The notes beneath the pieces were generated by a model that was given only the letters and a program-made list of their open reading frames with translations, searched no databases and had not been told where the DNA came from. Positions 26,981 to 45,704 of a stretch of DNA of 64,000 nucleotides are shown in pieces. Origin of the DNA: a bacterium (lineage in GTDB: Bacteria > Patescibacteriota > Minisyncoccia > Phycocordibacterales > UBA2100); assembly GCA_030674455.1 (NCBI GenBank), contig JAUSGQ010000020.1, forward strand, positions 13,461 to 77,460, in the 5' to 3' direction. Both the position numbers and the translations under genes were made by a program. Numbering within the stretch: position 1 is the first letter of the stretch; each line of letters starts with the position of its first letter.

Positions 26981-26981
26981 G

Positions 26982-27117: not shown

Positions 27118-27975
27118 ATGCGGCATAGACCAAAACTTGGACAACATTTCCTGAAAGCTAAATGGGCTGCGCGCTCGCTCGCTTATGCAGTTGGCATTTC
27201 TCCGGGCGACACAGTGCTAGAAGTCGGGCCTGGCAAAGGAGCTCTCACGCGCGAGCTACTTGCGATTGCTAAAGATGTCGGCGCAAAAGTTGTGGCGATT
27301 GAAAAAGATGAGGCGCTGGTCGCACATCTCGGTGAAATATTCGCAGATGAGATATCTTCGGGAATTCTCATAGTTGTTGCGGGAGATGTACGCGATGTTT
27401 ACCAAGGAGAGACCTTAAAATCCCCAAGGTCTCACCTTGGAGACGCGACCGCGGCACTATCTGGAAAATATGTTGTGGCGGCAAATATTCCGTACTACAT
27501 AACCGGAGAAATCATCCGCCAATTTCTAACAGCAGAGATACAGCCGCGCACGATGGCGCTTCTTGTGCAAAAAGAAGTCGCGCAAAGGGTTGTAGCTAAA
27601 CCCGCCGGAGGCGGGTCCTCCTCCGGAGGAAAGGAGAGCTTGCTTTCGCTCTCCGTTAAAGCGTACGGAACTCCGAAAATAGTTGTGAAAGTTCCACGCG
27701 GGAATTTCTCGCCGGCGCCGAATGTTGATTCGGCCATTCTTCTGGTAGAAAATATTTCCAGAGACTTTTTCTCTAGTATTAGCGAGGAGCTATTCTTCAA
27801 GGTGATACACGCCGGGTTCAAATCGAAAAGAAAATTCCTGCTCAATAATCTCGCTGGCACATTCGAGAAGGAGATTGTCGCGCGAGCATTCACCGAGTGC
27901 GGCATCAGTATGAAAGCCCGCGCTGAGGACGTACCGCTCGAGAAATGGAAAGCCCTTGCATTACACCTCGCTTAG
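27118..27975 (+). CDS. rsmA: 16S rRNA (adenine1518/1519-N6)-dimethyltransferase
   Basis: RPKLGQHFL at the N-terminus, the SAM-binding VLEVGPGKGALT, and NIPYYIT. Start at Met 27118. Confidence 0.85.
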   Translation: MRHRPKLGQHFLKAKWAARSLAYAVGISPGDTVLEVGPGKGALTRELLAIAKDVGAKVVAIEKDEALVAHLGEIFADEISSGILIVVAGDVRDVYQGETLKSPRSHLGDATAALSGKYVVAANIPYYITGEIIRQFLTAEIQPRTMALLVQKEVAQRVVAKPAGGGSSSGGKESLLSLSVKAYGTPKIVVKVPRGNFSPAPNVDSAILLVENISRDFFSSISEELFFKVIHAGFKSKRKFLLNNLAGTFEKEIVARAFTECGISMKARAEDVPLEKWKALALHLA

Positions 27976-28592
27976 TCCTGTTGGCCTCCTGTGGCCGGAG
28001 TCAGCGTTGTTTGTTGCACATTTTGAAGTGTCGCGCTATTCGGATCAAGCCCCGCTGGAGAAACCTGTGCTGGCGGAGGCGATGCCGGCACAAATGTGTT
28101 CAAGGGCGACCCTCCTCCGCTTGAGCCCATCATGCCAATCGCGATACCGGGAACAACAATCGGCCCGACCGGAAATACGACGCAAATGTAGGGAATACTT
28201 GTAAGCCCCAATAACCATTTGCCCGGAGCCGGAGGACCATTTTTATAGGTACGGGTGGCTAACGTCCATATATAGAGGCCGGGATTCGGCGACCCCACAA
28301 CGGAAATAGTGCCATAGGGAACGACACCAAACACAAAACATGGCCACACAAGGCTTGCTTTGCCTCCAAACGGATATGCGAGAGCCAAATTGGGCGCGCT
28401 AAGAAGAAGAGCGGCACAAATGAGAACTGCGGAAACAGGACGCCTGAACATGCTGTACATTCTAGCACTACGCGACTGGATACAGGTACATACAGCGAGG
28501 CCAAAATACCCGAGGTGCGACCTTGGGAGTGGCTCTTTAAGGTCGCACCTCGGGTATTTTGCTATGTTCGTTGCTGTGCTGTTGCTACTCAA
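27972..28592 (-). CDS. Hypothetical secreted protein
   Basis: Probable true start MYSMFRRPVSAVLICAALLLSAPNLALA (signal peptide) near 28455. Gly/Pro-rich. Confidence 0.4.
   Translation of the reverse strand: MSSNSTATNIAKYPRCDLKEPLPRSHLGYFGLAVCTCIQSRSARMYSMFRRPVSAVLICAALLLSAPNLALAYPFGGKASLVWPCFVFGVVPYGTISVVGSPNPGLYIWTLATRTYKNGPPAPGKWLLGLTSIPYICVVFPVGPIVVPGIAIGMMGSSGGGSPLNTFVPASPPPAQVSPAGLDPNSATLQNVQQTTLTPATGGQQD
28501..28558. promoter_or_regulatory. Perfect palindrome AAAATACCCGAGGTGCGACCTT-n14-AAGGTCGCACCTCGGGTATTTT between divergent genes
   Basis: 22-bp perfect arms. Lies between the likely starts of the divergent genes at 28455 (-) and 28564 (+). Confidence 0.5.
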
Positions 28593-29580
28593 CGCTATAC
28601 GCTATACCCTATACCTTATGCACTGGCTTCGCGAACACCGACACACCGTTGCGCTCATCGGGGCGGCTGTTTTTGTCGTAGTAGGCGGAATTCTCGCCAG
28701 AAACAATACTGGAGCTTCAGAACTCGGGAACATTAAAAATGTCGCTGTGGAATATCCTTACTACGCTCCTTCAGCAGATACAGAGGGCGTATCGGTAAAG
28801 AACCAGCGTACAAATCCGCAGAGTGCGGTTTCTGATATAGGCAGTTCAACGGCATCTCTCGCTGTTTTCTTTGACCGAGCATCAACGCCGGAACGGCCAC
28901 CGACAACATCTGTAACGCAAACCGCTACAAAAATCGTCCCGCAAACGCCGACTAAATCTCAAAGCACTATTACGAATTCTGCGTATTCGTCTTTCTTCCG
29001 CACGCTCTCGAATATTCTTTCTCCATCAGACACGCGAACACCGGAACAAAAAGAGCTTTATAATTACGGCAACGAGGTGGGCTCGATCGTAAAAACTTTT
29101 GAAAATAGCCATGGTAACCTGACGCAGGTGTTAAAAACGTTCTTCGACAGCCGCGTCGACCCCTCGAAAGCGGCTGCGACCCCTGAAATTGCCGATGCCT
29201 ACGCGCAATTGACGAGAGGAATTCCATCCTCAGCTGGCACAACTCCCGCCTCGGCAACCGCTGGAGTCCAATCCATCGCAAACGATTACGCACAATTGAG
29301 CTTCGCGATAGGGAGCATCGCAGATGTTCCTCCGCAAGCCGAAATCTTGAATGCGAAACTCGCCAAAGGATATGGGGACGTTGCACAAGGCATGTCCAAA
29401 CTTGCGAAAACTGACAATAATGATGCGCTTCTCGAGGCAATTAACTCTTATAACGCAACCGCGGAGGAATTTATCAGAACTTACGTCGCACTTGCGGATC
29501 TTTTTTCAGCATATGGAGTGAAATTCTCCGCGAGCGACCCGGGTTCAATTTTTTCTTTTAGTATGACTGGTGGGCTGTAG
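28564..29580 (+). CDS. Hypothetical membrane-anchored extracytoplasmic protein
   Basis: Start taken at MFVAVLLLL (N-terminal TM) just after the palindrome. Ser/Thr/Ala-rich exported domain. Confidence 0.45.
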   Translation: MFVAVLLLLNAIRYTLYLMHWLREHRHTVALIGAAVFVVVGGILARNNTGASELGNIKNVAVEYPYYAPSADTEGVSVKNQRTNPQSAVSDIGSSTASLAVFFDRASTPERPPTTSVTQTATKIVPQTPTKSQSTITNSAYSSFFRTLSNILSPSDTRTPEQKELYNYGNEVGSIVKTFENSHGNLTQVLKTFFDSRVDPSKAAATPEIADAYAQLTRGIPSSAGTTPASATAGVQSIANDYAQLSFAIGSIADVPPQAEILNAKLAKGYGDVAQGMSKLAKTDNNDALLEAINSYNATAEEFIRTYVALADLFSAYGVKFSASDPGSIFSFSMTGGL

Positions 29581-29860
29581 CGAAATACCCAAGGTCACAA
29601 ATGCGCGCATAGCGTGGCGGCCTGTCATAGTCGAGCGTAGCGAAGCAATCCAATTCCTTTCTTCTGGATTGCTTCGCGTTGCTCGCAATGACGATTCTTC
29701 GAAGGTTAAATTTTCCCCTATTGGTCGAAACTGTGGTCAGTTTCGACACGATTTTTGCTCCGTGGAGTACCACGGAAAAAATCGCCTACTGCCTAGTGCT
29801 TTTTCTTTTCCTTACTGCGTTTAGACCTCTTGCCTATTCATTGGATGTTATAATTTTCAT

Positions 29861-30703
29861 GTGGAAAACAAACACGCGAACGATGCGGGGTTTATTTTGA
29901 CGTGGCGAGATCGTCTGGGAATTTCATTCTCGCCGATGCTCATCGCCGCCGTTCTTTCCGTCGCGGTTTTATTAATTGCAATCGGCTGGCAGGCCAATAA
30001 AACTATCGTAACGGCAAATCCCGGAGCTTTTACCGGTTCGGGGAAGGTATCTTCCGCCCAAAATCAAACCGGGAGCGGAACAATTACAGAAATGAACTAT
30101 ATCGCACTCGCAGACGAAGCAGGTCCGAATGATTTCTCGAACACCGAAAGCGACGTTTTTGGACAACTTTTCGGAACATATATTAGCCTCAAAAATTCGG
30201 GAACGTACACAGAGGAGAAAGGGGCTGACCTGGCCAATCGCATAGCCGAGGCAACGGTGGCGCAGGTTGAATACACGCCTATTGCGAGGAGCGAAATAAA
30301 AACCGATTCCGACGTCTCTCGCGAACGAGTTCTTGCATATAGAAATGACTTGCAAACCGCTCTTGCGCCTTTTTTAACGAAGTCCGAATCGGAACTCGGA
30401 ATTTTTAACAGCTATGTACAAACGGGAGATAAGCACAACCTTGAGCTTTTGGCAGATGCTGCGGGGAAATATCGCAAAACTGTTTCTCTGCTCTCCGCAG
30501 TGACCGTACCGCAAGACGCGATTGATTATCACCTGGGAATCACGAACTCTCTTTTGCAGTTCGCAGTAACTCTTGATGCGATGATAAAAAATGCGGATGA
30601 CCCGATGGCTACTCTTGCCCTCTTGCGCACATACAATTCCGCTGAAGATAGCGTGTACACATCGTTCAGCTCCCTTGCTTCCTACGAAAAGCGAAAAATA
30701 TGA
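29861..30703 (+). CDS. Hypothetical membrane-anchored protein (T4SS-like cluster)
   Basis: N-terminal TM LIAAVLSVAVLLIAIGW. 4-nt overlap with the next gene suggests an operon. Confidence 0.45.
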   Translation: MENKHANDAGFILTWRDRLGISFSPMLIAAVLSVAVLLIAIGWQANKTIVTANPGAFTGSGKVSSAQNQTGSGTITEMNYIALADEAGPNDFSNTESDVFGQLFGTYISLKNSGTYTEEKGADLANRIAEATVAQVEYTPIARSEIKTDSDVSRERVLAYRNDLQTALAPFLTKSESELGIFNSYVQTGDKHNLELLADAAGKYRKTVSLLSAVTVPQDAIDYHLGITNSLLQFAVTLDAMIKNADDPMATLALLRTYNSAEDSVYTSFSSLASYEKRKI

Positions 30704-32442
30704 CTCCCATTAGAGACCGCGGAAGTTTAGTCTGTGTCCATTCAACGGATGTTTTTCATTGGTCTATTGCTTACGGGCAATTGCTTTTGAGTCGGAAGCG
30801 CAAACTTCCTACTTCTAACGGGACAGGTAACAAATATTCTTTCATCGCCCTGTGGTGCGCGCTGGCAATATTCGCAGCGCCCGCAGGCGTTTACGCGCAA
30901 CTTACAGCAAACGATGACCCCATGGAAAATTGCAGTATATATGGCGCCCAATCAATGAGCGTGGGCTCTATCGCAACGCTCGGAGGCGGAGTTGTGCCGG
31001 TGAGCGACGCGGCCGTTACTCTGAATACCGGAATGCTCGTCTACAAAGAATGCATCGTTCGCAAAATAATAGACGCAAAAAAGAAAGCCGCGATAGCGCA
31101 ACTTATAAGCGATTCTTCAAAAACATATCTGAAAGGACGAGAGGTCTGCACAGTGGACATTGACGGCAATAGAACATGCGAAACGACCAGTCCGTATTTT
31201 CCCGAAGATCTGGCGGCCGACCAGCGGCTGTGGGAGAGCAATGTTGTCAACCAAAACATAAGCGGCGGGCTATCAAATTCTCTAAATCCTGCGTATCAGA
31301 ACGACCTGCGGCTTGCCCTCAATCGCTCCTATCAGCAACAAATCCAGAATCCGGGCGCATCGCTCGCCTGTTCGTATACGGGAGACCTCGTCGCTCTTAA
31401 CAACGGTGCATACGACGGTCCGCAGTCATTGTTTGCGGTCGGCGACCCCAACTGCAATCCTCTCTTCAATTATTACAATTACCAAAGTTCCGTCATGAGC
31501 ATCGCGGCCGCCGACACAGCAAACAGGATGACCCGCCTTGGCTGGAACAATGGCACGTATGACGTCGAGTACAGGGATCCCGCGACCGGACGAGTGCGCG
31601 TCGTTACGCCCGGATTCATAGTAGCGGGAACTTTCCAACAGCAACTCGGCTCGAATTTCCGACAGCTTGAAAATGCCAACGACATAGGACAATTGATAAA
31701 CGTATTCTTCGCCGGAATAGGGAACCTTGCTATTTCGGCCACAGCTCAAGGGCTTAACGCGCTTATCAATTCCTCCGTCGGGACATCTTTCGTTGACAGG
31801 ATGGTGCAAGACTTCGGTGCGGAACAATCAGCCGCGCAGACCGGCGCAGCTCTACAGAATCTCCAGGCGGCGGTCTATAACGAGAGTCAATATCTCGCGG
31901 CAAAAAATGCGACGAAGGACGTGTTGATGCAGGCCGCGACAAGTTTGCGCGATGCGGAAAACCTATGTTGGAGCCGGATAGTTCCTCTGGTAACGACGTA
32001 TGCGCAACAAAACAGCATCGCTCAAATACAGATAGCGACAACGTCAGAGCAATGGGCGCAAAAAGTCATAGAAAACAACAACAATAGTCTCGTTAGGCTG
32101 GCGGCTTCTCTAAACACCGAAGCTACTGCCGCCTCCACAGCGCTTGACCGTCTCAATGAAATCAGTGCCGGAGTAACTAACAACACTATTAGTGGAACCG
32201 ACGGCTACAATCAACTCAACGCCATCGTTTCAACCCTCCCTACACAGGCCGACGTGCAGGGCGCACAAGAGCAAACGCAGACCATGCAAACAAATCTTGG
32301 GACACTTGTTCAGGGAACCCTGACAGCCTGGCAAGGAAATGCAGACCCTACTGTCGGCTGGTGCAATGTCAATACTCCCGCCGTGATTAAAGGATGGGCA
32401 GACAAATGGAGCGGGAGCAGCAGCATCTATGACCACCGATAA
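30700..32442 (+). CDS. Hypothetical secreted protein (T4SS-like cluster)
   Basis: Signal peptide FIALWCALAIFAAPAGVYAQ followed by 580 aa of Asn/Gln/Thr-rich sequence. Operonic with the VirB6-like gene. Confidence 0.45.
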   Translation: MTPIRDRGSLVCVHSTDVFHWSIAYGQLLLSRKRKLPTSNGTGNKYSFIALWCALAIFAAPAGVYAQLTANDDPMENCSIYGAQSMSVGSIATLGGGVVPVSDAAVTLNTGMLVYKECIVRKIIDAKKKAAIAQLISDSSKTYLKGREVCTVDIDGNRTCETTSPYFPEDLAADQRLWESNVVNQNISGGLSNSLNPAYQNDLRLALNRSYQQQIQNPGASLACSYTGDLVALNNGAYDGPQSLFAVGDPNCNPLFNYYNYQSSVMSIAAADTANRMTRLGWNNGTYDVEYRDPATGRVRVVTPGFIVAGTFQQQLGSNFRQLENANDIGQLINVFFAGIGNLAISATAQGLNALINSSVGTSFVDRMVQDFGAEQSAAQTGAALQNLQAAVYNESQYLAAKNATKDVLMQAATSLRDAENLCWSRIVPLVTTYAQQNSIAQIQIATTSEQWAQKVIENNNNSLVRLAASLNTEATAASTALDRLNEISAGVTNNTISGTDGYNQLNAIVSTLPTQADVQGAQEQTQTMQTNLGTLVQGTLTAWQGNADPTVGWCNVNTPAVIKGWADKWSGSSSIYDHR

Positions 32443-32448
32443 ATCGTT

Positions 32449-34965
32449 ATGAAAAAAATCCTCACATTAGGTTTTTTGACAATAGCACTGCTCATTACTG
32501 CTGCACCTGAGTTGGCTACAGCACAATCCGCACAACCCGAGTGGTGGGAATTAGCGAGGAACACTGCATGGTGTGGGACTTTAGGACTTCTTGATCCATC
32601 CTGCTGGATTAAATTAATCGCCGTCGTAGGCGGCACCATCTTGGTTAATTTAGCAGCATTGCTTTTGGGACTGGCGGATATGCTGTTCGGATGGACGTTT
32701 GATAACACGGTACTTTTATTCAAAACAGAGATATTTCAAAAGGCGGAAGAGGGAATAAACGCCGGTTGGACGGCACTTCGTGACATCGCGAATATCGTCA
32801 TAATCGGAATGCTCACCTTTACTGCAATCTCGACAATCCTCGGGATACAGGAATATGCCGCAAAGAAATTTCTCGCTCGCGTGCTTATAATAGCGGTGCT
32901 CATAAACTTCAGCTTACTTTTTACAAAACTTATTATTGACGCTTCCAACTTTACCGCAGGGCAGTTCTACGCGGCGGCGGCCGGAACATCCTTAGGCGGA
33001 GCGATGGATGATGCAACAAAGCGCAGCAGCGGCCATAAGGCCGACATCGCGGCACCCGAGACATCCTTTCGAAAGACCGGTATTTCCGGCGCATTCATGC
33101 GATTTTCAAGAGCGACGAGCATTAGCGGCACTGGGGGAAGCTTATTTAGGACTGCTTATAGCGATGCTGGTGGTGCACTCATGGCACTCGGGCAGGCCGT
33201 TCTTGCGGTGATACTACTGGGCGGAGCCGCGTTAGTTCTTTTCTATGGCAGTTATCTCCTCATATCCCGCGCTTTGCTGTTTATTTTTCTTATGATTACC
33301 GCGGCTGGCGCATTCGCGACCTACCTCATCCCCGGAATGAGCGACAGTAGGTATGGATGGAAGGGCTGGTGGTCGTCGCTTTTGCACAATGCCGCTCTTG
33401 CCCCCATTTTAATGGTACTGATATGGGTAACAATCCAGGTGTCCTCAAAAATGTCGGACATGAGAGAGGGTGCCGGGGGAACCCTCGGGACATTGGCCGA
33501 CCCCAAGCTCTTGTCCTCGGCTGATGGAGGGGTTTCATCGATAAGTGAGCTATTCTCCTTTATCGTAATTATAGGATTGCTCTACGCTTCTTTCCTTCTT
33601 GCGAGCAAATGGGCGGGGAAGGTGGGCGGTCTCAGCATGGCGTCAATGGCATTAACCGTTCCATTCAACCTCGGCTCGCAAGCGGTAGGATTCGCTCTCA
33701 AAAAAGGATTGGGCGGCGGAGCCGCATTAATTGAAAAGAAGATTGGCGCGAAGCAAGGAAAACTAAGGGATAGACTGGCTCGTTACCCCGACATGTCGCC
33801 TGCCAGAAAGAGCACAATCCAGGCTGGCATCGATAAGTATGCGTGGCAAAAGGGACTTGCCGGACGGTTTGCAAAACAGAATTACAATCCTATTGCACAA
33901 CTTGCAAAGACAAAGTTGGGCCAAACGGTCGCAAAGCAAGCCGGATTTACCAGCCCGATATCTGCCGGCGACGCGAAGTCTAATTTTGCAGATGATGCGA
34001 AAAAGGTAACTGAAGCCGCTGTAGCGCGCGCAGAAGCTGCGTACCAGTTCTCTACGAGCGATCAGAGAAAAATGCGTGAAAAGGAAGAGGCAAGACGAAG
34101 AAAAGAATGGCAGGAACACAAACAATTGCTCACCGAACAGGCAGTACTGGCAGCAAGAACTGCCGAAGCATCGGAACAACAGACGCAAAGAGAGAAAGCC
34201 AGATTGGAGCTTGAAAAACAACTGGTTGTGAGAGAAGCGACAGACAAAAAGACAAATGAAAATCTTGCGCCTAAAAAAGCCGTCGCGGAAGATAATCTAA
34301 AGACTGTAACGAAAGATGCGACGGCGCAAAAGGCAACCGTGGCTCTCACCTCGGACACATTAATCAAGAAACTCCAGGACGAACTAAGCCATGCCCAGAC
34401 GCCTGACCAAACAAAGGAAATAACCGGTAAGATAAAGAGCGCGGTGGCGGAAAAACAAGCGGCAATTGATGAGCAAGATGTGAGGATAAGAGACGCACAG
34501 AAAGCCGTAAAAGATATTGAGAATAGAATCGGTGAAATAGACAGGGATGCGAGAAAAGAAACACAAGAACTTGATGAATCTCTTTCACACTATGAAGAAA
34601 ATGCGGTTCGTGATGCGAGAAGGAGCAAGGGGCTCAACGAAAGGCTTAGAAAGGAAGATAACAAGGAAGAAACTGGACAACTTGATATTGATATTTCAAG
34701 AGCGGCGGAGAGAGTAGTGCAACGGTCAATTGATGCCGTTAAAAAACCGGGCGCGGAAGCGGCGGAAAGATATGCAGCCAATAGGATATCTGCTCTCGGA
34801 TTTGGGGCCTATGTCGGAGGAAAGGCGAAGACAATGTATGAAGACAAACAGGGTAAGACTAGGATTAAGAAAGACCTCGAAACGTATCTTGAAGATATGT
34901 TGAAACCAGAAAGTGCATCCACGGTGGCGCCGACTCCGCCGGCAACCCCAGGGACAACCGCTTGA
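32449..34965 (+). CDS. VirB6/TrbL-like polytopic membrane protein with long C-terminal coiled-coil
   Basis: N-terminal signal, then about 6 TM helices over ~400 aa, as in TrbL/VirB6. The C-terminal 400 aa are charged coiled-coil (EKARLELEKQLV...). Lies upstream of the PrgI-like and VirB4-like genes. Confidence 0.45.
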   Translation: MKKILTLGFLTIALLITAAPELATAQSAQPEWWELARNTAWCGTLGLLDPSCWIKLIAVVGGTILVNLAALLLGLADMLFGWTFDNTVLLFKTEIFQKAEEGINAGWTALRDIANIVIIGMLTFTAISTILGIQEYAAKKFLARVLIIAVLINFSLLFTKLIIDASNFTAGQFYAAAAGTSLGGAMDDATKRSSGHKADIAAPETSFRKTGISGAFMRFSRATSISGTGGSLFRTAYSDAGGALMALGQAVLAVILLGGAALVLFYGSYLLISRALLFIFLMITAAGAFATYLIPGMSDSRYGWKGWWSSLLHNAALAPILMVLIWVTIQVSSKMSDMREGAGGTLGTLADPKLLSSADGGVSSISELFSFIVIIGLLYASFLLASKWAGKVGGLSMASMALTVPFNLGSQAVGFALKKGLGGGAALIEKKIGAKQGKLRDRLARYPDMSPARKSTIQAGIDKYAWQKGLAGRFAKQNYNPIAQLAKTKLGQTVAKQAGFTSPISAGDAKSNFADDAKKVTEAAVARAEAAYQFSTSDQRKMREKEEARRRKEWQEHKQLLTEQAVLAARTAEASEQQTQREKARLELEKQLVVREATDKKTNENLAPKKAVAEDNLKTVTKDATAQKATVALTSDTLIKKLQDELSHAQTPDQTKEITGKIKSAVAEKQAAIDEQDVRIRDAQKAVKDIENRIGEIDRDARKETQELDESLSHYEENAVRDARRSKGLNERLRKEDNKEETGQLDIDISRAAERVVQRSIDAVKKPGAEAAERYAANRISALGFGAYVGGKAKTMYEDKQGKTRIKKDLETYLEDMLKPESASTVAPTPPATPGTTA

Positions 34966-34977
34966 TATACTGGCAAT

Positions 34978-36146: not shown

Positions 36147-36151
36147 CCAAT

Positions 36152-36598
36152 ATGCAATTCCAAGTTCCGCAATTTATAGAGGTTGAAGATAAGATTTTCG
36201 GGCCTCTTACTTTTAAGCAGTTCGTGTATGTCGCGGGCGGGCTTGGCACGTGCTATCTCTTCTGGAAAATTCTGCCTGTGCTCATATCGGTTCCGCTCAT
36301 TGCGGTGACAGCTGCGCTTGCGGCCGTTCTCGCGTTTTTCCAATTCAACGGAAGACCGTTTGTCGCCGCGCTCGAGCACGGCTTCTATTTTCTTTTGCGG
36401 AGCAAACTCTACCTCTGGAGGAATGATGAGAATGGAAGGGAACAGGCGGCAACAAAAAAACAGCTTCTGGACAAACAGGCGCAGGAAAAGGGGAAATCTC
36501 TCGTATATATTCCGAGCCTTTCCAACAGCAAACTGCACGATTTAGCCTGGAGCCTAGATATAAAAGAACAAATCGCCGAGAGCGAGGCGAGTGAATAG
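36152..36598 (+). CDS. PrgI/VirB3-like small conjugal-transfer membrane protein
   Basis: IEVEDKIFGPLTFKQFVYVAGG followed by two TM helices matches the PrgI-family architecture. Immediately upstream of the VirB4 homolog. Confidence 0.5.
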   Translation: MQFQVPQFIEVEDKIFGPLTFKQFVYVAGGLGTCYLFWKILPVLISVPLIAVTAALAAVLAFFQFNGRPFVAALEHGFYFLLRSKLYLWRNDENGREQAATKKQLLDKQAQEKGKSLVYIPSLSNSKLHDLAWSLDIKEQIAESEASE

Positions 36599-36725
36599 GT
36601 GATAGGTTCCACCCAGTAGGTGATTCTGCTAAATCAGGTGCTAGGTACTAGGTTAAAATCAAAACAATGAAACTTCAAGAAATCCATCTCCCTGACACCT
36701 GTAACCTGACACCTATAACCTAATC
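36599..36725. repeat. Empty copy of the GGTG.(T)AGGT ... CCTGACACCTGTAACCT inverted-repeat element
   Basis: GGTGATAGGTTCCACCCAGTAGGTGATT...CTGACACCTGTAACCTGACACCTATAACCT, with no cargo ORF. Confidence 0.45.
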
Positions 36726-36727
36726 CT

Positions 36728-37378
36728 ATGCCCCAATCTCTAGCCAGCAAAAAATCAACGCAGGATTTCGTGCCAGTGCGCGAGGTGCGCGACGGAATTG
36801 TCGTTCTCAAAGACGGCGGCCTGCGCGCGGTACTTCTCGCGTCCTCAATCAACTTCGCTCTCAAATCGGACGACGAACAGACCGCTTTCATAACTCAATT
36901 CCAGAGCTTCCTGAATTCTCTTGATTTTTCCGTACAGATATTCATAGAGTCGCGTATGCTGGACATCCGCCCTTATGTCGCCACGCTCGAGGCTGCGCAC
37001 AAAGAGCAGTTGGACGACCTAATGCGCGTTCAGATACGGGAGTACATCGAGTTCATCAAGAGCTTTACAGAGACCGCCAGCATTATGACGAAGAATTTCT
37101 TCGTGGTAGTGCCGTATTCAACTGGAGGAATAGGTGCGGGACTTTCGGGGCATTCTTCGTTCCTGCCGTGGAAAAGAAAAAAAGGTTCCTCCGAAGAAGA
37201 AAATAAATCGTTCGCAGAACAAGTGTCCCAGCTGGAACAGAGAATCGGGATTGTTCAACAGGGGCTCGTGCGCACCGGCGTCCGCACCGTCCAGCTTGGA
37301 ACGGAAGAGACCATTGAACTTCTCTATAAATTATTTAACCCGGGAGAGGAAGGGAAGCCGATGGTACTTGAAAAGTAA
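36728..37378 (+). CDS. VirB4-like protein, N-terminal fragment (split gene)
   Basis: DFVPVREVRDGIVVLKDGGLRAVLLASSINFALKSDDEQTAFI matches the extreme N-terminus of Gram-positive-type VirB4 proteins (IPY..I.DGI...DG.Y.K...INF.L.S..E). The ORF stops exactly at the boundary of the inserted element. Confidence 0.55.
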   Translation: MPQSLASKKSTQDFVPVREVRDGIVVLKDGGLRAVLLASSINFALKSDDEQTAFITQFQSFLNSLDFSVQIFIESRMLDIRPYVATLEAAHKEQLDDLMRVQIREYIEFIKSFTETASIMTKNFFVVVPYSTGGIGAGLSGHSSFLPWKRKKGSSEEENKSFAEQVSQLEQRIGIVQQGLVRTGVRTVQLGTEETIELLYKLFNPGEEGKPMVLEK

Positions 37379-37850
37379 ATCCGAAATCCGAAGCACGAAA
37401 TCCGAAAAAATCCTAAATCCAAATATGAAAAAAGAAGACCGGAAATATGACTTGGAAGAAAGAAGTTTCTTGTTCGCAAAGAACGTGCGGGCCTTTGTGA
37501 AAAACTTGCCACGTTCCATTACCAGTATAGAAGACACGAAGCAACTTGTGCGGTCATCTGGGTCAATTGGCGCAAATTATATTGAAGCGAACGAGTCGTT
37601 GAGCAAGAAAGATTTTTTGCTACGAATACGCATCGCGCGAAAAGAGGCAAAGGAAAGCAAATATTGGCTACGACTCATAGATACCAATACTGATGGCTTA
37701 GAAAAGCGACGAGCGGAACTAGAACAGGAAGCCACAGAATTGATGATGATTTTAAGTTCGATTATGAGAAAATATGTTTAAAATTTCTTTCTTTTTTGGT
37801 TTTCGGCATTTTTTCGGATTTCGGATTTCGGATTTCGTGCTTACTATATA
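37379..37850. mobile_element. IR-flanked mini-element carrying a second four-helix-bundle gene, inserted in the VirB4 homolog
   Basis: Left AAATCCGAAATCCGAAGCACGAAATCCGAAAAAATCC and right GGCATTTTTTCGGATTTCGGATTTCGGATTTCGTGCTTAC are imperfect inverted repeats. Confidence 0.5.
37425..37781 (+). CDS. Four-helix-bundle protein (PF05635-like), copy 2
   Basis: ERSFLFAKNVRAFVKNLPRSI...RSSGSIGANYIEANESLSKKDFLLRIRIARKEAKESKYWLRL is the same family as 35750-36118. Start taken at MKKEDRKYD. Confidence 0.65.
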   Translation: MKKEDRKYDLEERSFLFAKNVRAFVKNLPRSITSIEDTKQLVRSSGSIGANYIEANESLSKKDFLLRIRIARKEAKESKYWLRLIDTNTDGLEKRRAELEQEATELMMILSSIMRKYV

Positions 37851-37854
37851 GTCT

Positions 37855-39762
37855 ATGTCCCTCCTCGACCTCTTCAGAAGCAAAAAGACAAACGCCGAAC
37901 CGTCGGCGCTTCCCATACTCCCCGAGGAAATTTATTCGGCCGGCGTTTTGGATTTGCAGGATGTCATCGCTCCGCACGCGCTAAAGATAAGCTCGCGCGA
38001 ACTGGACTTGGGCGAGCGCATCGCGCGCACATTTTTTGTTATTTCCTATCCGCGCTTTCTCACCACCGGCTGGTTCGCGCCCATCATCAACATGGACAAA
38101 GTCCTGGACATTTCCATATTCATTCACCCGATGGACACGAGCGAAATGCTCCGAAAATTCCAAAAGAAAGTCGCCGAAGTGCAGAGCCAGATATCCACGC
38201 GCGAGCAAAAGGGAATGGTGCGCGACCCGATGCTCGATACCGCGTATTCCGACCTCGAGGGTCTGCGCGACTCTCTCCAGCAGGCGCAGGAACGCATCTT
38301 TGAGGTCGGCCTGTATCTCACCGTATACGGCAACACCCGTGAGGCGGTAGATAAAATAGAATCCGAGATACGCTCTGTTCTTGAATCGCGCTTAGTCTAC
38401 ATTCGCCCCGCGCTTTTTCAGCAAGAGCAAGGATTCAGGAGCGTCCTTCCGCTCGGCAATGACGAGCTCGATGTTCATACGAAATTGAATTCCGCTCCGC
38501 TCTCCTCTATCTTCCCATTTATCTCATTCGACCTCACTTCAAACCGCGGAATTCTCTACGGCATCAACCGGCATAATTCTTCGCTTATTCTCTTCGACCG
38601 ATTCTCGATGGAGAACTATAACTCGGTCATGTTCGCGAAATCGGGTTCTGGAAAGAGCTACATGACGAAATTGGAAATCCTGCGCTCGCTCATGTTCGAC
38701 ACGGAAGTCATCGTCATAGACCCTGAACGCGAGTATGAATATCTGGCGTCTACCGTGGGCGGCCGGTATTTCAATATTTCACTTTCATCGGAACACCACA
38801 TCAATCCGTTCGATCTTGCTATCCCGCGCGAAGACGAAAATCCTGCGGATATTTTGCGAAGCAACATCATTACTCTCGTCGGACTTTTCCGCATTATGCT
38901 TGGAGGCCTCTCTCCCGAGGAAGACGCTATTATCGACAGGGCGATAACTGAAACGTACGCGCTTAAAGACATTACGGCGGAAGCAAACTTCGCGGCAATT
39001 GAGCCGCCGCTACTCTCCGACTTTGAGCTGGTGCTCTCCGGCATGGAGGGAAGCGAATCGCTCGTACAGCGACTTTCGAAATATACTAAAGGTACGTGGT
39101 CGGGATTTATGAACAGGCCGACGAACGTGGACATGAATAAAAAACTCATCGTATTTTCCGTCCGCGATATGGAAGACGACCTGAAGCCCATCGCGATGTA
39201 CATCATTACGCACCACATATGGAATGTCGTGCGCAAAGAACTTCGCAAGCGCCTACTCGTCATAGACGAGGCGTGGTGGATGATGCGCTCCGCGGACACC
39301 GCCTCATTCCTGTTCTCAATCGCAAAAAGAGGAAGAAAATATTTCCTCGGTATTTCCACGATAACGCAGGACGTTTCGGACTTCTTGAACTCTCCGTACG
39401 GCCTGCCCATGATAACGAACTCGTCCATACAGATTCTTTTGCGGCAATCCCCGACTTCGGTGGACCTCGTCCAGCAGACTTTCAAGCTTTCGGATGAAGA
39501 AAAATATCTTCTGCTCGAGTCGGACGTGGGAGAGGGAATATTTTTCGCCGGACTAAAGCACGTGGCCATCAAAGTCATCGCTTCGTACACGGAAGACCAG
39601 ATAATCACATCCGACCCGTCGCAAATTCTTGCAATCCGCAAGGCAAAACAGGAATTGGCAGATGCAGAGAGCGCCCAGGCTACGTCTGCGATTACAACTG
39701 ACGCCGCTTCCTTCGCCCCGGCTCAGAATACCGCCGCCAGTTCTACAGCCACGCTCAAATGA
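37855..39762 (+). CDS. VirB4-like T4SS ATPase (C-terminal 635 aa including the ATPase domain)
   Basis: IAPHALKISSRELDLGERIARTFFVISYPRFLTTGWFAPIINMDKVLDISIFIHPMD is a VirB4-typical segment. Walker A MFAKSGSGKSYMTK, Walker B RLLVIDEAWWMM. Together with 36728-37378 it would make ~851 aa, a normal VirB4 length. Confidence 0.8.
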   Translation: MSLLDLFRSKKTNAEPSALPILPEEIYSAGVLDLQDVIAPHALKISSRELDLGERIARTFFVISYPRFLTTGWFAPIINMDKVLDISIFIHPMDTSEMLRKFQKKVAEVQSQISTREQKGMVRDPMLDTAYSDLEGLRDSLQQAQERIFEVGLYLTVYGNTREAVDKIESEIRSVLESRLVYIRPALFQQEQGFRSVLPLGNDELDVHTKLNSAPLSSIFPFISFDLTSNRGILYGINRHNSSLILFDRFSMENYNSVMFAKSGSGKSYMTKLEILRSLMFDTEVIVIDPEREYEYLASTVGGRYFNISLSSEHHINPFDLAIPREDENPADILRSNIITLVGLFRIMLGGLSPEEDAIIDRAITETYALKDITAEANFAAIEPPLLSDFELVLSGMEGSESLVQRLSKYTKGTWSGFMNRPTNVDMNKKLIVFSVRDMEDDLKPIAMYIITHHIWNVVRKELRKRLLVIDEAWWMMRSADTASFLFSIAKRGRKYFLGISTITQDVSDFLNSPYGLPMITNSSIQILLRQSPTSVDLVQQTFKLSDEEKYLLLESDVGEGIFFAGLKHVAIKVIASYTEDQIITSDPSQILAIRKAKQELADAESAQATSAITTDAASFAPAQNTAASSTATLK

Positions 39763-40064
39763 ACACAACCCGCATAAGCGTAACGACTGCAATTTTTTTG
39801 GTCGCTATAGCTGTATTAACTGACATAGCTGATTTTCTCTTGGGGATGGGGGCTTTGGGTATTCTTGTAGACATTCCTGCCGCTCTCATATTAGGAATAT
39901 GTTTTTCACACTGCGACGTAAGTTTGATGGATTCCAAACGCGTCGGTAAATTTCTAGCCACCATTGTTGCAGAGGCGACCCCCGTTGTTAACGACTTTCC
40001 TATATGGACTTACACGATCCTTTCCACAATAAAACAAGAGTGGCAAGAACCTCTCGAGATATAA
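39759..40064 (+). CDS. Small two-TM membrane protein (possible pilin/VirB2-like or VirB3-like)
   Basis: 101 aa with two hydrophobic helices. 4-nt overlap with the VirB4 homolog stop. Confidence 0.35.
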   Translation: MNTTRISVTTAIFLVAIAVLTDIADFLLGMGALGILVDIPAALILGICFSHCDVSLMDSKRVGKFLATIVAEATPVVNDFPIWTYTILSTIKQEWQEPLEI

Positions 40065-40071
40065 TTGCCAT

Positions 40072-41106
40072 ATGCAGACAAGAATTTACGTCATTTGTCT
40101 TACGGTCTTCCTTTTTTCTCCAACAACAATTCACGCGCAATTTAATTCCCCAAGCGAATTGGGAAAGATATTTATTTCTCTAACACCGGGGAATCCGGCC
40201 CCCGGCGAAAATGTTCAGCTTTCCGCGACAAGCCCGCTTATCGACCTCGCACGAAGTGACATCATCTGGTATGCGGATAAAAAAGTAATCGCGGAGGGGC
40301 GGGGTCAAATACATGCGGGCGTTACCGCGGGTCCTGCCGGGTCGGAGACTGATATCGTAGTCATCGCACAGTCCGAGAACGCAAGCGCAACCGGAGAAGC
40401 ATTTTTGAGACCGGCCGAAGTTGGACTAATGTGGGAATCCGATTCCTATACACAGCCCTTTTATAGAGGGCGCGCGCTTCCTTCCGCAGGAACAAAGCTC
40501 CGAGTGCAGGCACTCGCGCGGTTGGTCCTTCCAGATGGCAGTTCTGTACCGGAAAATGAAATTACCTACACCTGGAAGCGAAACGGTTCCGTTGTTGGGT
40601 CTGTATCGGGAATCGGCAAGTCTTTTGCGATTTTTCCGTCTCCATCGCTTTTCGGCACTGACATAATTGAGGTGGAGGCGGCTTCTGCGGACGGCACGCG
40701 CGTGGGACACGCAAGCGCGAGAATACCGTCCGTTGAACCCGTGCTTGCTTTGTATGAAGACCACCCTCTCTTTGGAATAATGTACGGAAAAGCACTCGAC
40801 AAACAGATTTCCGCAAAAGACCAGGAAATGACTTTCGCCGCAGTTCCATACTTTGCACAAGCAAGAAGCCCGGATGACGAACAATTCATATACAAGTGGC
40901 GGGTTAATGGGAGAGATATTACTGCTGATTATGCGCGGCCGAGCGAAATTACAATAAACTCAACGGATTCAAGCGGGGAAGCGCTTCTCGCTCTTACTAT
41001 AACTCGCGAACGCAACTGGAACATGAAAGCGAGCGGTGCATGGAATATTTTGTTCCCATCGGGGTCAGGCACGCCCGCAACTGACCCGTTCACATCCGCC
41101 CAATAG
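40072..41106 (+). CDS. Hypothetical secreted protein
   Basis: Signal peptide MQTRIYVICLTVFLFSPTTIHA. 344 aa. Confidence 0.45.
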   Translation: MQTRIYVICLTVFLFSPTTIHAQFNSPSELGKIFISLTPGNPAPGENVQLSATSPLIDLARSDIIWYADKKVIAEGRGQIHAGVTAGPAGSETDIVVIAQSENASATGEAFLRPAEVGLMWESDSYTQPFYRGRALPSAGTKLRVQALARLVLPDGSSVPENEITYTWKRNGSVVGSVSGIGKSFAIFPSPSLFGTDIIEVEAASADGTRVGHASARIPSVEPVLALYEDHPLFGIMYGKALDKQISAKDQEMTFAAVPYFAQARSPDDEQFIYKWRVNGRDITADYARPSEITINSTDSSGEALLALTITRERNWNMKASGAWNILFPSGSGTPATDPFTSAQ

Positions 41107-41118
41107 TCTTTTAATTGT

Positions 41119-41404
41119 ATGCCCAGACACTCACTTTGGCATCGCCTCTTTATGAAAACAATCCTTGTGAGCAAACTTCGAACAATGGGACAAGTTCAGG
41201 TTACATCTAGGTATGCTTCGGCAATAAAGGTTCCTCGCGGCAAGCCGCGAGGAATTAGTGGAACTCGCTTCGCTCGTTCAGTCGCGCAGCAAGCTGCGCG
41301 GTATTCCACCTGTGTTGCGTCTTCGCTCGGACGAAGTGTGAGCAAGCTCCCACTTCGCTCCTCGCTAGCCACAATAAATTATGCCAAAGTTAGTGTACGG
41401 GTAT
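41119..41404. repeat. Long (286-bp) relative of TIR element family 'A' with structured interior
   Basis: Left ATGCCCAGACACTCACTTTGGCAT, and the right end ATGCCAAAGTTAGTGTACGGGTAT is its inverted repeat (20 of 24). The interior holds several GC hairpins (CCTCGCGGCAAGCCGCGAGG; CGCGCAGCAAGCTGCGCG; CGTCTTCGCTCGGACGAAG). The terminal GGGTATG supplies the ATG of the downstream gene. Confidence 0.6.
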
Positions 41405-42713
41405 GATATCCACAAAAACATTTCTTCATTACGCCATAACTATCACGATCATTCTCCTCGTTGGAGGACTCGCCGGATGGTATTACTTTCTCAACAAGCA
41501 AAAGCAGGCAATTTCCACGAGCGACACGGGGCGGGGGTTAGACTCGCCTGCGCCCGCTTTCGGCGGCAGTACGGGGAGCAATTACAGCAACGTCTCCGGA
41601 ACAATCTCCGATGGCACGCCCGTCAATCAGGCCAAAGCACCGCCCCGGATTTGGCAGGTTACAAAAACGCCGGTCGCAGGCATGGGATTTGTTACAAGCA
41701 CTTCTTCAGCCGCAACAACATCAGCTGCGCAATTGTATTTCGTTGAGCGCGCAACCGGATACATCCTAAAAGCCGATACGGAAACCAGCCTGATATCTCG
41801 ACTTACAAACAAACTTTTTGCCCGCACATATGAAGCGTCGTTCAGTTCGGACGGTTCCGTAGTTCTCCGCTCAATCGACGACCGGGGCAATATCACGAGC
41901 TTTGCCGGTGATAATCCTCTGCAAAGTGCAGCGACAGCCTCCACTTCTCCAACGAACTCTAAAGAGCTCGCTGGGGGCCCACTTTCCGGCAAATATTTGG
42001 AGCCCAATATTCGTATGATCGTGCCGATGCAGAAAACACGTGAATTGCTTCTTCTCATACCGAATGCGGGCGGGGGATCAAGCGTGGTTCTATCGTCATG
42101 GAACGGTATTAAACAAAAAACTCTTTTTTCATCGCCTCTTGCTGGATGGAAACTCTTCTCCCTCTCGGATGGGCGGATATTTCTTTCTCTCTTGCCTTCT
42201 GATGATGCGGCAGGCTACGCGTTTGAGTTAAAAAACGGCACCCTGGTACCGCGTTTAAGGAACATCCCCGGGCTGACGTTCCTGCCGCGAACATCGTCGG
42301 ATGCCGTATTATTTGGCGAATCGAGCGGAAGGCTTTCGCTCTTCTCAAGCGCCAAAGAAGGGGCCGAGAGGGTGTATCTTCCGCTTCAAACTGTAGCTGA
42401 TAAGTGCGTATGGGCTCCCTTAAACGCGCCGCTTCGCAGAGCGTCGGGCGAGCGACTCATCGCGTATTGCGCTGTTCCGCAATATGTCGCGTCAAGCAAT
42501 TTTCTTATGGATTGGTACAGGGGAGCTCTGCGCACCTCTGACTCATGGTGGCGCATTGATACTGCTACCGGAGAAGTAACGCCTCTGCTTGAGACCGAGG
42601 AAACTGACAAGGTTTTTGATGTGGAAAATCCGATCATTGACAGCTCGGGAGAGCAAATAGCTTTTATGGACGCGAAAGACAAGTCTCTGTGGCTTCTTCG
42701 CATAACACAATGA
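41403..42713 (+). CDS. Hypothetical membrane-anchored exported protein
   Basis: N-terminal TM ITITIILLVGGLAGWYYFL. 436 aa and Ser/Thr-rich. Confidence 0.45.
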   Translation: MISTKTFLHYAITITIILLVGGLAGWYYFLNKQKQAISTSDTGRGLDSPAPAFGGSTGSNYSNVSGTISDGTPVNQAKAPPRIWQVTKTPVAGMGFVTSTSSAATTSAAQLYFVERATGYILKADTETSLISRLTNKLFARTYEASFSSDGSVVLRSIDDRGNITSFAGDNPLQSAATASTSPTNSKELAGGPLSGKYLEPNIRMIVPMQKTRELLLLIPNAGGGSSVVLSSWNGIKQKTLFSSPLAGWKLFSLSDGRIFLSLLPSDDAAGYAFELKNGTLVPRLRNIPGLTFLPRTSSDAVLFGESSGRLSLFSSAKEGAERVYLPLQTVADKCVWAPLNAPLRRASGERLIAYCAVPQYVASSNFLMDWYRGALRTSDSWWRIDTATGEVTPLLETEETDKVFDVENPIIDSSGEQIAFMDAKDKSLWLLRITQ

Positions 42714-43603
42714 CTATGAATACAAAGAATATCTTGAAACACCTTAAAACGCGCATTTCCAACGTCTTGTACGCTGTCGCGTTCGCACCGCTTGCAGATG
42801 TGGCAAGTTCCCAAAAACTTAGAGCTCTTTATAGTAGCGACGCCGATTTGGTCACTTACCTGAACACGCTATTCAAAGTGGCTATTTCGGTGGGAGCCAT
42901 TATCGCGGTATTGCGCCTCATGTATGCGGGCTACCTCTACATGGCAAGCGACATGTGGACAAGTAAAGAATCTGCGAGAAGTATATTTCGCGACGTCTTT
43001 GTTGGCCTGCTGCTTCTTCTTTCTGTATACATTATTCTCAAGCAGATCAATCCTAACCTCCTGAATTTGGACGCCAAGCTTAGCGAGGTGACAGTGGTTC
43101 TACCGAGCGACACCAGAAGAGATTGGGCGACTGACCCCGCGCTGAGCGCAGCAATGGCTACTGCATTTGGCGACAGTGGCAGAACATGGGAAAGATTACG
43201 AACTGCTGGCATAAGCAGAAACAAAAGCGAATGTACTGCGGCAGCCCCAACCAATTGCACGAGTCTGGGAGGGCTTGGCGAGGGTGCTGTTAACGGCCTT
43301 ATCAACCTAAAATCTGCGTGTACTGAAGCCGCCCGAGCTAGTTGCACAGGTTCCGCATGCAGTTGCGATGTTACTGTAACAGGTGGTACCGAATCATGGC
43401 TTCACAGCCGAGGCACTCAACATCGCCCCGGGAATTCTGTTGTTGATCTGGCTCCTTCAGCAGGTCTAAATACATTCCTTCTCGGATCCGGCGTAGCTCC
43501 TGTAAGCGGCCAGCAGGTTACCAAAAACTTTGCGCGTTACACATACGAAACCACCGGGGACAACGGCGTGTCGACTGGTAATCACTGGCACGTCCAGTAT
43601 TAA
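42689..43603 (+). CDS. Membrane protein with two N-terminal TM helices and a C-terminal Cys-rich domain bearing an M15/VanY-like metallopeptidase motif (possible T4SS pilin-like / cell-wall hydrolase)
   Basis: TM helices VAISVGAIIAVLRLMYAGYLYMA and VFVGLLLLLSVYIIL. C-terminal SRGTQHRPGNSVVDL (H-x7-D) and the terminal GNHWHVQY resemble the Zn ligands of VanY/M15 peptidases. Confidence 0.35.
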   Translation: MASSHNTMTMNTKNILKHLKTRISNVLYAVAFAPLADVASSQKLRALYSSDADLVTYLNTLFKVAISVGAIIAVLRLMYAGYLYMASDMWTSKESARSIFRDVFVGLLLLLSVYIILKQINPNLLNLDAKLSEVTVVLPSDTRRDWATDPALSAAMATAFGDSGRTWERLRTAGISRNKSECTAAAPTNCTSLGGLGEGAVNGLINLKSACTEAARASCTGSACSCDVTVTGGTESWLHSRGTQHRPGNSVVDLAPSAGLNTFLLGSGVAPVSGQQVTKNFARYTYETTGDNGVSTGNHWHVQY

Positions 43604-44238: not shown

Positions 44239-44266
44239 GGGGCAACTATACCTCTCGAAAGAGAAA

Positions 44267-45125: not shown

Positions 45126-45136
45126 TCGGACTAGTA

Positions 45137-45275: not shown

Positions 45276-45283
45276 CCCATCAA

Positions 45284-45640: not shown

Positions 45641-45704
45641 AAAGGTTCCTTGAACCCGTATTGGCTCCTCGGCTCGCCGCCCATTCGCCAATCAAACTGA
45701 AAAC

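Follow-up and report, generated by a model that had tools for sequence, protein, structure and literature searches.

Thirteen genes, all of them open reading frames (ORFs), lie at positions 27972-43603 of a 64,000-nt stretch of contig JAUSGQ010000020.1 (hereafter the window), between uvrD-ksgA and jag-yidC-rnpA-dnaA and hence beside the replication origin. Among them are genes for a VirB4 ATPase, a separate TrsD-like protein, a PrgI/VirB3-like protein, a VirB2-like pilin and a candidate VirB6-like protein; the remainder, and the VirB6 candidate, are referred to here by number (g0 to g11). With a probability of about 0.85 we regard the cluster as a chromosomal, vertically inherited type IV secretion system (T4SS) of Paceibacteria (Kaiserbacteria-like) Patescibacteria, related to the mating-pair formation (MPF) machinery of the monoderm FATA type. 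ORF calling returned, with the same boundaries, every ORF that a first-pass annotation of this DNA had listed as parts of a T4SS-like cluster. The run was described there as co-oriented and tight, which holds for most of its length; the exceptions are the minus-strand ORF at 27972-28592 and four looser junctions, into which inverted-repeat elements have been inserted.

ORF and Pfam scans of the window place genes for PNPase, ComM, PurA, an M23/LysM peptidase, UvrD and KsgA upstream of the cluster, ksgA ending at 27975. Downstream are jag, yidC and rnpA (43744-45691), dnaA (46228-47613) and genes for DnaN, a class A penicillin-binding protein, RuvABC-type proteins, PilB and PolA. Four annotated relatives (L002, L005, L006 and L007) were located via the 838-aa product of g4, which is identical to NCBI Q7S01_03025 and whose homologues come from Kaiserbacteria and Paceibacterota. 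They share with the window the order ComM, PurA, M23/LysM (minus strand), UvrD, KsgA, the 13 genes, Jag, YidC and RnpA (all three on the minus strand) and DnaA. Within the cluster the four relatives have a small minus-strand ORF, followed by genes for products of ~300, ~265, ~530-590, ~780-900 and ~190 aa, then PrgI, a TraC-like/TrsD protein (~220 aa), VirB4 (~645 aa), an occasional product of ~110 aa, products of ~340 and ~410 aa, and the pilin.

At least 552 VirB4 relatives turned up in a scan of species-representative genomes; the best 80 are 72-91% identical and, judged by record title, belong to Kaiser-, Nomura-, Taylor-, Campbell-, Adler-, Wolfe- and Zambryskibacteria. When the window genes were compared by tblastn with 84 related loci, matches, all in the orientation seen in the window, were obtained for TrsD in 82 loci, PrgI and g10 in 81 each, g11 in 69, the membrane domain of the VirB6-like protein and yidC in 66 each, the pilin N-domain and dnaA in 61 each, g5 in 58 and ksgA in 55. 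The synteny comparison with other Patescibacteria that had been proposed at first pass showed the gene order to be shared by 84 related Paceibacteria loci, an arrangement which, judged from sequence, is far beyond chance. The fixed gene order and the housekeeping flanks argue for vertical inheritance, and we take the locus to be a core chromosomal one rather than a mobile element. Conservation is uneven along the cluster: identity to the four annotated orthologues is 88-90% for VirB4, 73-80% for TrsD, 54-63% for PrgI and 49-62% for the N-terminus of g5, and 23-43% for the exported or anchored proteins. That VirB4 and TrsD are so much more conserved than the exported parts fits a conserved motor combined with a fast-evolving host interface.

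The virB4 gene (37855-39762, plus strand, as are all genes and elements of the cluster named below unless stated otherwise) encodes the C-terminal part of the N-domain together with the P-loop domain. Its product matches NF045971 (CD1110-family VirB4) with 365.7 bits (cut-off 325) over model positions 185-733, and PF19044 at 8e-25; the Walker A (GSGKS) and Walker B (VIDEAW) motifs are intact in the translation. By these profile matches the ATPase is classed as being of the monoderm (FATA/CD1110) type; an exact look-up of the product found no existing record. A separate polypeptide, the TrsD-like protein (36728-37378), provides the N-terminal domain of VirB4; it covers positions 2-109 of the CD1110 VirB4 model and matches the TrsD model NF041427 at 2.1e-7 (30.9 bits, below the curated cut-off of 200); PF26593 (TraC-like) is recorded for the same TrsD product.

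TrsD adjoins virB4 in 82 of the 84 loci. In 58 of the 77 loci in which both ends can be placed, the TrsD stop codon is at most 16 nt, and mostly 1-5 nt, from the VirB4 start. In the window this spacer measures 476 nt. The first-pass annotation had called VirB4 "split"; there are indeed two ORFs, but the generality of the two-gene layout and its usual short gap mean that the split is not damage. We regard separate trsD and virB4 genes as the native, ancestral layout, only the 476-nt spacer being an insertion. Screening of the whole window with Rfam (at gathering thresholds) and ARAGORN gave no matches, so that neither an intron nor a riboswitch accounts for the spacer. That the cluster is a decaying remnant, its VirB4 broken by a mobile insertion and the system dead, could be argued from the two ORFs, their distance apart and the unrelated gene between them. 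This is very improbable, given that the layout recurs so widely among the relatives and is the known TrsD/TrsE arrangement, that the insert, placed precisely between the TrsD stop and the VirB4 start, leaves both ORFs uninterrupted, that VirB4 has kept its motifs and its close identity to the orthologues, and that all 13 genes are open. Since the TrsD/VirB4 split is native, annotators should not label such a pair a pseudogene.

The small membrane protein encoded at 36152-36598 matches PF12666 with 39 bits (cut-off 27), which bears out its earlier naming as PrgI/VirB3-like; a TcpE match is weak. It had been considered at first pass that VirB4 might prove to be the sole T4SS marker among unrelated surface proteins. 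This was not borne out, since PrgI, TrsD, a member of the PF18895 pilin family and a predicted, probably VirB6-like fold were found as well.

The last of these is seen in g4 (32449-34965), a polytopic protein for which hydropathy indicates a signal peptide and ~7 hydrophobic helices; its C-terminal ~400 aa matched coiled-coil proteins only in profile and family searches. A profile of the membrane domain matched nothing among PDB sequences, and the full-length profile gave only coiled-coil noise; among 17,506 representatives, the 150 matches listed for the membrane-domain profile were all close relatives. Residues 1-450 were modelled with AlphaFold (AF2) from 93 sequences; the model is confident, with a predicted local distance difference test score (pLDDT) of 82.7 and a predicted template modelling score (pTM) of 0.76. 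When this model was compared with the PDB by Foldseek, the highest-probability matches were five chains of R388 TrwI/VirB6, all within the top nine: 8rt9_F (probability 1.00, E 0.05, target-normalised TM-score (TMt) 0.45), 8rtd_L (probability 0.99, TMt 0.47) and 7o3v_F, G and J. Overall, the TrwI matches had probabilities of 0.82-1.00, TMt values of 0.41-0.48 and E values of 0.05-0.5, and unrelated helical proteins had TMt values of 0.1-0.25. R388 TrwI is the best structural match of the g4 membrane domain over ~310 aligned columns at 14-17% identity; g4 is three times longer and differs in its 400-aa coiled-coil tail and an N-terminal Cys pair. Only g5 and one inserted cassette separate g4 from prgI. 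From the predicted fold, the topology and the position of its gene, g4 is probably a VirB6-like protein, and the long tail is in keeping with the "extended VirB6" type of which PMC12857230 speaks.

The last gene of the cluster (42689-43603) encodes a 304-aa protein with two transmembrane (TM) helices and a C-terminus containing six Cys residues, H245-x7-D253 and H299-W-H301. The two TM segments, the Cys-rich C-terminus and the His motifs had been noted at first pass; what had been missed is that residues ~54-122 constitute a VirB2-like T4SS pilin, to which a ~160-aa Cys/His domain is joined. The L002 orthologue passes the PF18895 threshold (31.5 bits), most of the 77 pilin homologues have PF18895 recorded, and two are named "pilin" by NCBI. 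No other ORF of the window is pilin-like. On family membership we identify this last gene as that of the VirB2-like pilin.

It could be proposed that the locus is a conjugative element, either an integrative and conjugative element or an integrated plasmid, that transfers DNA; its VirB4, TrsD and PrgI are homologous to the CD1110 family, pGO1 TrsD and pCF10 PrgI, respectively. No relaxase, coupling protein, integrase or replication module was found in the 64 kb; the search for the first three covered every window ORF of at least ~105 aa, and oriT was not searched for. The same housekeeping flanks recur across 84 species-level relatives in different genera, and the G+C content is unremarkable (0.47-0.51). 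The survey cited below records relaxases in only 103 Patescibacteria genomes and close to virB4 in only 15 cases (PMC12102498). The conserved chromosomal synteny largely refutes the conjugative proposal, to which we assign a very small probability. The view taken at first pass, that such a cluster in the candidate phyla radiation (CPR) is probably not conjugative, agrees with the lack of any relaxase or coupling protein in the window.

Quinonero-Coronel et al. 2025 (PMC12102498) surveyed the T4SS of Patescibacteria across 2,474 virB4 genes. According to that survey, the Patescibacteria VirB4 clade is sister to MPF-FATA; TrsD, PrgI/VirB3, VirB6 and VirB2-like pilins occur near virB4, and relaxases are almost absent. 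The neighbours of virB4 in Paceibacteria are dnaA, dnaN, rnpA, ksgA and rpmH, and "VirB1" matches bearing M23/LysM are associated with virB4 in the same class. Like these systems, the locus described here has a VirB4 belonging to the MPF-FATA-related clade, together with a separate TrsD, PrgI/VirB3, a probable VirB6 and a PF18895 VirB2-like pilin; it also has no relaxase nearby, and its chromosomal position is beside dnaA, dnaN, rnpA and ksgA. Because component set, relaxase scarcity and the dnaA/ksgA/rnpA neighbourhood all match, the kind of system is already known, and the locus is a further member of the described Patescibacteria T4SS. It differs from the surveyed systems in that its operon is interrupted by two PF05635 cassettes and by two hairpin inserts that are ORF-less. 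What is new here, modestly, is the domain fused to the pilin and the hairpin elements at gene junctions; the searched sections of the survey mention neither PF05635 genes nor pilins with extra domains.

Two plasmid systems of monoderms offer further comparison. In the Trs system of the staphylococcal plasmids pGO1/pSK41 (MPF-FATA, with TrsC, TrsD and TrsE), the N-domain of VirB4 is likewise a separate TrsD of ~200 aa, encoded just upstream of the ATPase and beside a VirB3-like small membrane protein. That system is plasmid-borne and has a relaxase, an oriT, a coupling protein and the TrsG hydrolase, and no pilin; the present locus, in contrast, is chromosomal and has a pilin, and the relaxase and coupling parts of Trs were not found in the window. 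The Prg/Pcf system of the enterococcal plasmid pCF10 comprises PrgH (VirB6-like), PrgI (VirB3-like), PrgJ (VirB4), the hydrolase PrgK and PrgL (VirB8-like). It shares with our locus the order polytopic protein, PrgI, VirB4 and the Pfam family of PrgI. Unlike pCF10, the cluster has no detectable PrgK- or PrgL-like genes, its VirB4 is encoded by two genes, the adhesin PrgB is absent, and a VirB2-like pilin, absent from Gram-positive systems, is present.

Several points weigh against reading the cluster as a complete T4SS of this kind. The VirB6 assignment of g4 is weaker than the others, depending on Foldseek E values of 0.05-0.5 for a predicted model and no hidden Markov model (HMM) match: g4 had no Pfam or NCBIfam match at E <= 0.1, and PF04610 (TrbL) was matched in one of 12 family members, at E = 0.063. 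The earlier description of g4 as VirB6/TrbL-like with a 400-aa coiled-coil tail is accordingly upheld as regards topology, tail and the TrwI fold matches, but not by any TrbL/VirB6 or PrgH profile. The window pilin itself scores 21.5 bits against PF18895, below the cut-off of 26.6. HMM searches of g0-g3, g5 and g9-g11 and their orthologues detected no VirB8-, VirB1- or VirD4-like parts in the cluster, which sets it apart from the surveyed systems and makes the architecture outside the membrane guesswork. The relaxase and coupling-protein negative covers the 64-kb window only. Finally, the data on T4SS essentiality come from Saccharimonadia, a class other than Paceibacteria.

Those data concern Southlakia epibionticum, for which transposon sequencing (strain ML1; Wang et al. 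2023, as cited in PMC12857230) is reported to show that the T4SS cluster and its pilin array are essential for growth on the host, independently of comEC. S. epibionticum has an array of six divergent pilins; the present locus has only one pilin gene, whose product bears a fused C-terminal domain. A preprint (bioRxiv 10.64898/2026.06.21.733656) describes tubular structures, possibly T4SS pili, at a parasite-host interface and proposes feeding on host RNA.

In the present locus, PrgI/VirB3, the VirB6-like protein and the TrsD/VirB4 motor would form a membrane platform, and outside it the pilin would be polymerised into a tube or fibre. The wall-spanning and host-contact parts would be supplied by those six or seven proteins that are exported or anchored and evolve fast (g0-g3, g10 and g11); they would take the place of the undetected VirB8 and VirB1 functions. 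Such a machine would move macromolecules between epibiont and host cell rather than conjugate DNA. As to the direction of flow, uptake of host material (nucleic acids or other polymers) seems to us the better guess, at slightly less than even odds, and export of effectors a somewhat weaker one.

A more specific proposal is that of a DNA-uptake machine of the competence type, like ComB of Helicobacter or Ced of Crenarchaeota. It would account for T4SS parts lacking a relaxase and a coupling protein, VirB4 has a weak match to CedB (NF041017, 3.7e-9), and the survey hypothesises import of host DNA or other macromolecules by Patescibacteria, which lack nucleotide synthesis (PMC12102498). In S. epibionticum, however, loss of comEC abolishes transformation and not growth, while the T4SS is essential (PMC12857230), so that the essential role is not ComEC-dependent DNA uptake; moreover, the cluster contains no com genes, and RNA, protein or lipid would be just as possible a substrate. 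We consider a dedicated DNA-uptake machine unlikely.

Among the means by which these ultrasmall bacteria, poor in biosynthesis, might exploit their hosts, the T4SS of Patescibacteria is at present the foremost candidate. To this general picture the locus adds little; it does give a clean 13-gene Paceibacteria blueprint that separates constrained parts (VirB4 ~90%, TrsD ~78%) from the fast-evolving exported proteins (23-43%). Two leads also emerge: the putative zinc domain fused to the pilin, whose distribution is wide and toxin-like, and the small hairpin elements, which have inserted with precision between the cistrons of the operon.

The pilin is 156-179 aa long in most relatives, 304 aa in the window and 1071 aa in L002. 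In the latter (gene at 18680-21895) PF18895 is matched at residues 85-150 and is followed by ~900 aa with no Pfam match, from which it seems that the C-terminus of the pilin is an attachment site for different large domains. The type of domain found in the window (43121-43603) was detected by tblastn in only two of the 84 loci. A profile search with this domain alone gave 670 matches, among them pilin fusions of CPR bacteria. Stand-alone relatives are signal-peptide proteins of 150-175 aa from Streptomyces, Renibacterium, Nocardioides and other Actinobacteria; many fungi (Rhizoctonia, Botryobasidium, Verticillium, Podospora), bdelloid rotifers and one springtail have the domain as well. One relative (P0316) is fused to a WXG100 domain of the type VII secretion system (T7SS), and some of the small secreted relatives are named "peptidoglycan-binding" by UniRef. 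No Pfam domain and no solved PDB relative was found for the family, which in our searches constitutes an unnamed one. Its presence in Actinobacteria, fungi, rotifers and a springtail is suggestive of horizontal transfer. The T7SS fusion, the secreted proteins and the eukaryotic occurrences are as would be expected of an antibacterial wall-degrading effector, and antibacterial effectors that eukaryotes have acquired by transfer show a similar distribution.

Across ~30 full-length homologues the invariant residues of the ~160-aa domain are C182, C190, C226, G232, G233, E235, H245, D253, H299 and W300; for H245, D253, H299 and W300 the invariance was counted over 29 homologues. The wider alignment conserves VTGGTE, the first His, S-H-x2-G-x3-D (H-x6-D) and N-H-W-(D/H). 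In hhalign comparisons with reference sequences checked against PDB entries 6e1h and 1r44, the conserved residues fall on the zinc ligands of ShhN (P = 0.0033, at a low probability of 9.8%) and, weakly, on the SHSRGSAID motif of VanX (P = 0.08). The likeness to the hedgehog/VanX zinc site is thus site-specific and statistically weak.

The first-pass annotation had proposed that this protein carries an M15/VanY-like cell-wall hydrolase analogous to VirB1 or PrgK. An LAS-like zinc or M15 (VanY/VanX-type) hydrolase would agree with the invariant E235, H245, D253 and H299, with the canonical S-H-x2-G-x3-D spacing of the wider family, with the placement of these residues on zinc ligands, and with relatives that include a T7SS WXG100 fusion and small secreted proteins, some of them called peptidoglycan-binding. 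Set against this, no M15 or other peptidase HMM matched the pilin, 23 homologous C-terminal domains or 10 stand-alone relatives, and profiles of the domain matched nothing in PDB sequences or Pfam. The AF2 model of the pilin is confident (pLDDT 80 overall and >90 across most of the C-terminal domain), and Foldseek searches of it against the PDB and BFVD found no LAS/M15 structure (hedgehog/DD-peptidase fold), only helical noise. The third motif, HW(D/H), is not strictly HxH, and the hhalign probabilities are low. M15/VanY membership as such is not sustained, what is left being a motif-level likeness, and a hydrolase of this broader class is a tentative idea that we judge rather less probable than its absence. 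Some metal-dependent, wall-directed function of the domain, on the other hand, we would give an even chance. In the window lineage the external Cys/His domain of the pilin may bind metal and act on the cell wall of the host or of the bacterium itself. The stronger version, in which the domain is a hedgehog/VanX-like zinc hydrolase of peptidoglycan and the T4SS fibre is itself an enzyme-bearing, wall-opening tool, is doubtful; if true, the pilin domain would open the host's or its own wall and supply the VirB1 function that surveys report missing.

Another possible cell-wall hydrolase partner of the cluster is the peptidase encoded on the minus strand at 23330-24502, which has an M23 domain (PF01551, 4.9e-30) and two LysM domains (8e-26). 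Its gene lies two genes upstream of the cluster and occupies the same position in L002 and L005-L007.

The remaining eight genes (g0, g1, g2, g3, g5, g9, g10 and g11) match no Pfam family; six of the eight were also scanned against NCBIfam, with no match. Orthologues (four for most genes, two for g9 and one for g0) scanned at permissive Pfam thresholds showed no family twice. This accords with the earlier remark that most components have no assignable function. At the start of the cluster, g0 (27972-28460, minus strand, divergent from the operon) encodes a small Cys-containing exported or membrane protein with TM-like segments; its ORF extends over 27972-28592, with Met45 as the likely start, and it had tblastn matches in 28 of the 84 loci, 27 of them on the minus strand. 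Between the divergent g0 and g1 is a perfect 23-bp hairpin with a 14-nt loop (28502-28561), which could be a regulatory or terminator site.

The three genes that follow had been described as encoding membrane-anchored or secreted proteins, and TM-like or signal-like segments fit in each case. The g1 protein (28564-29580, ORF start at 28360 or 28564) is membrane-anchored with TM-like segments, is ~300 aa in relatives and is 23-35% identical to its orthologues in L002 and L005-L007. By hydropathy g2 (29861-30703) is bitopic, with one N-terminal TM segment (residues 18-46) and an external domain, and it is 30-39% identical to its orthologues; its position and topology make it a candidate for a VirB8-like role. 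The exported 580-aa g3 protein (30700-32442) has a signal-like segment and 10 Cys residues, and its orthologues are 27-34% identical.

Beyond g4, g5 (34978-35715) encodes a soluble 245-aa protein with no TM segment. Its residues 1-110 are the conserved part; the C-terminal part is variable and ~50 aa longer than in the orthologues (186-195 aa). Two 35-nt direct repeats (35398-35432 and 35542-35576, 144 nt apart) composed of GAATAC(A/C) heptamers lie inside the extra C-terminal stretch, each encoding NTEYRIPNT, and in appearance their units are similar to the arms of the hairpin elements found between genes.

After virB4 comes g9 (39759-40064), a small protein with two or three TM-like segments by hydropathy, in keeping with the two-TM protein reported earlier. 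It is patchily conserved, with tblastn matches in five of the 84 loci and genes of 106-112 aa called at the same position in L005 and L007. Both of the next two products had been listed as exported. The 344-aa g10 protein (40072-41106) begins with a signal-like sequence, MQTRIYVICLTVFLFSPTTIHAQF, which was read from the translation and was not flagged by the hydropathy scan; it is 40-43% identical to its four orthologues, which show scattered sub-threshold Ig/BACON-type matches only. The 436-aa g11 protein (41403-42713) is external and anchored by an N-terminal TM segment, and is 32-40% identical to its orthologues.

Four elements interrupt the otherwise close spacing of the operon. The first, an inverted-repeat cassette at 35712-36140, contains a four-helix-bundle gene (ORF 35750-36118) matching PF05635 (23S_rRNA_IVP) at 1.7e-38; it is absent from L002 and L005-L007, is present at the same junction in L008, L014, L016, L033, L068 and L087, and is represented by a remnant in L022. 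An ORF-less hairpin element (36597-36725; repeat families D3 and D4, inverted pair I2) lies between the PrgI and TrsD genes, with a minimum free energy (MFE) of -31.1 and z = -2.4; in the four annotated relatives only 3-6 nt separate the two genes. The second PF05635 cassette (37374-37845; ORF 37426-37781, 5.3e-15) fills the entire TrsD-VirB4 spacer. Its 38-nt arms are 84% complementary, and the MFE fold pairs both ends (35 pairs, z = -4.1). The fourth is an inverted-repeat insert between g10 and g11 (41119-41404; pair I16, 24-nt arms, 83% complementary, z = -3.9), in which a 95-aa ORF has no Pfam match; the gap at this point is 1-4 nt in three of the four annotated relatives and 140 nt in L005. 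Similar elements are found at uvrD|ksgA (26978-27118) and jag|yidC (44265-44397), and the window elements fit exactly between the stop codon of one operon gene and the start codon of the next. Neither of the two PF05635 genes had appeared in the first-pass listing.

Among the 84 loci, PF05635 genes occur in 12, and only at the two junctions g5|PrgI and TrsD|VirB4. A further 12 loci have ORF-less inserts of 47-98 nt at TrsD|VirB4. In ~8 of these, complementary arms of ~7-nt tandem units pair end to end; the sequence of the unit varies from genome to genome, and the arms remain complementary. Elements at this junction were noted in L005, L008, L014, L016, L017, L019, L020 and L022. The loop of several ORF-less inserts begins like the leader of the second PF05635 gene of the window, and some of the hairpin elements look like ORF-deleted derivatives of PF05635 cassettes.

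The elements recall the intervening sequences of bacterial, including CPR, rRNA genes, in which the same PF05635 family is found inside a stem of terminal inverted repeats. As in the CPR rRNA intervening sequences, there are versions with and without the PF05635 ORF, here at the same sites; unlike them, the window elements lie between protein-coding genes of an operon and not inside rRNA. By analogy, one might speculate that the stems are processed by RNase III. A link of the Avd-like PF05635 genes to a diversity-generating retroelement was considered and rejected, as no reverse transcriptase was found in the window and the bAvd match is sub-threshold only. Inverted repeats around ordinary genes (HAD hydrolase, ArsR regulator) were likewise rejected as cassettes, being instead pairs of self-palindromic intergenic sites.

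Elsewhere in the window there are two copies of an element of ~130 nt (12231-12364 and 46094-46225). The 21-nt inverted arms (CCCGGTAGGACAATTTCGAAT / ATTCGAAATTGTACTAACCGG) are identical in both, and the copy at 46094-46225 lies just upstream of dnaA. A related pair, consisting of an element at 503-642 and the insert at 41119-41404, has the common arm core ATGCCCAGACACT. The G+C content, ~0.50 elsewhere in the window, dips to 0.39 at 6001-8000 and 0.44 at 54001-56000; the former segment contains a HAD hydrolase gene and small unassigned ORFs and is flanked by self-palindromic sites. The window also encodes a type IV pilus ATPase of the PilB type (T2SSE; 58786-60537) and an 886-aa surface protein (15678-18338) with SpaA-like prealbumin-fold domains and RTX repeats.

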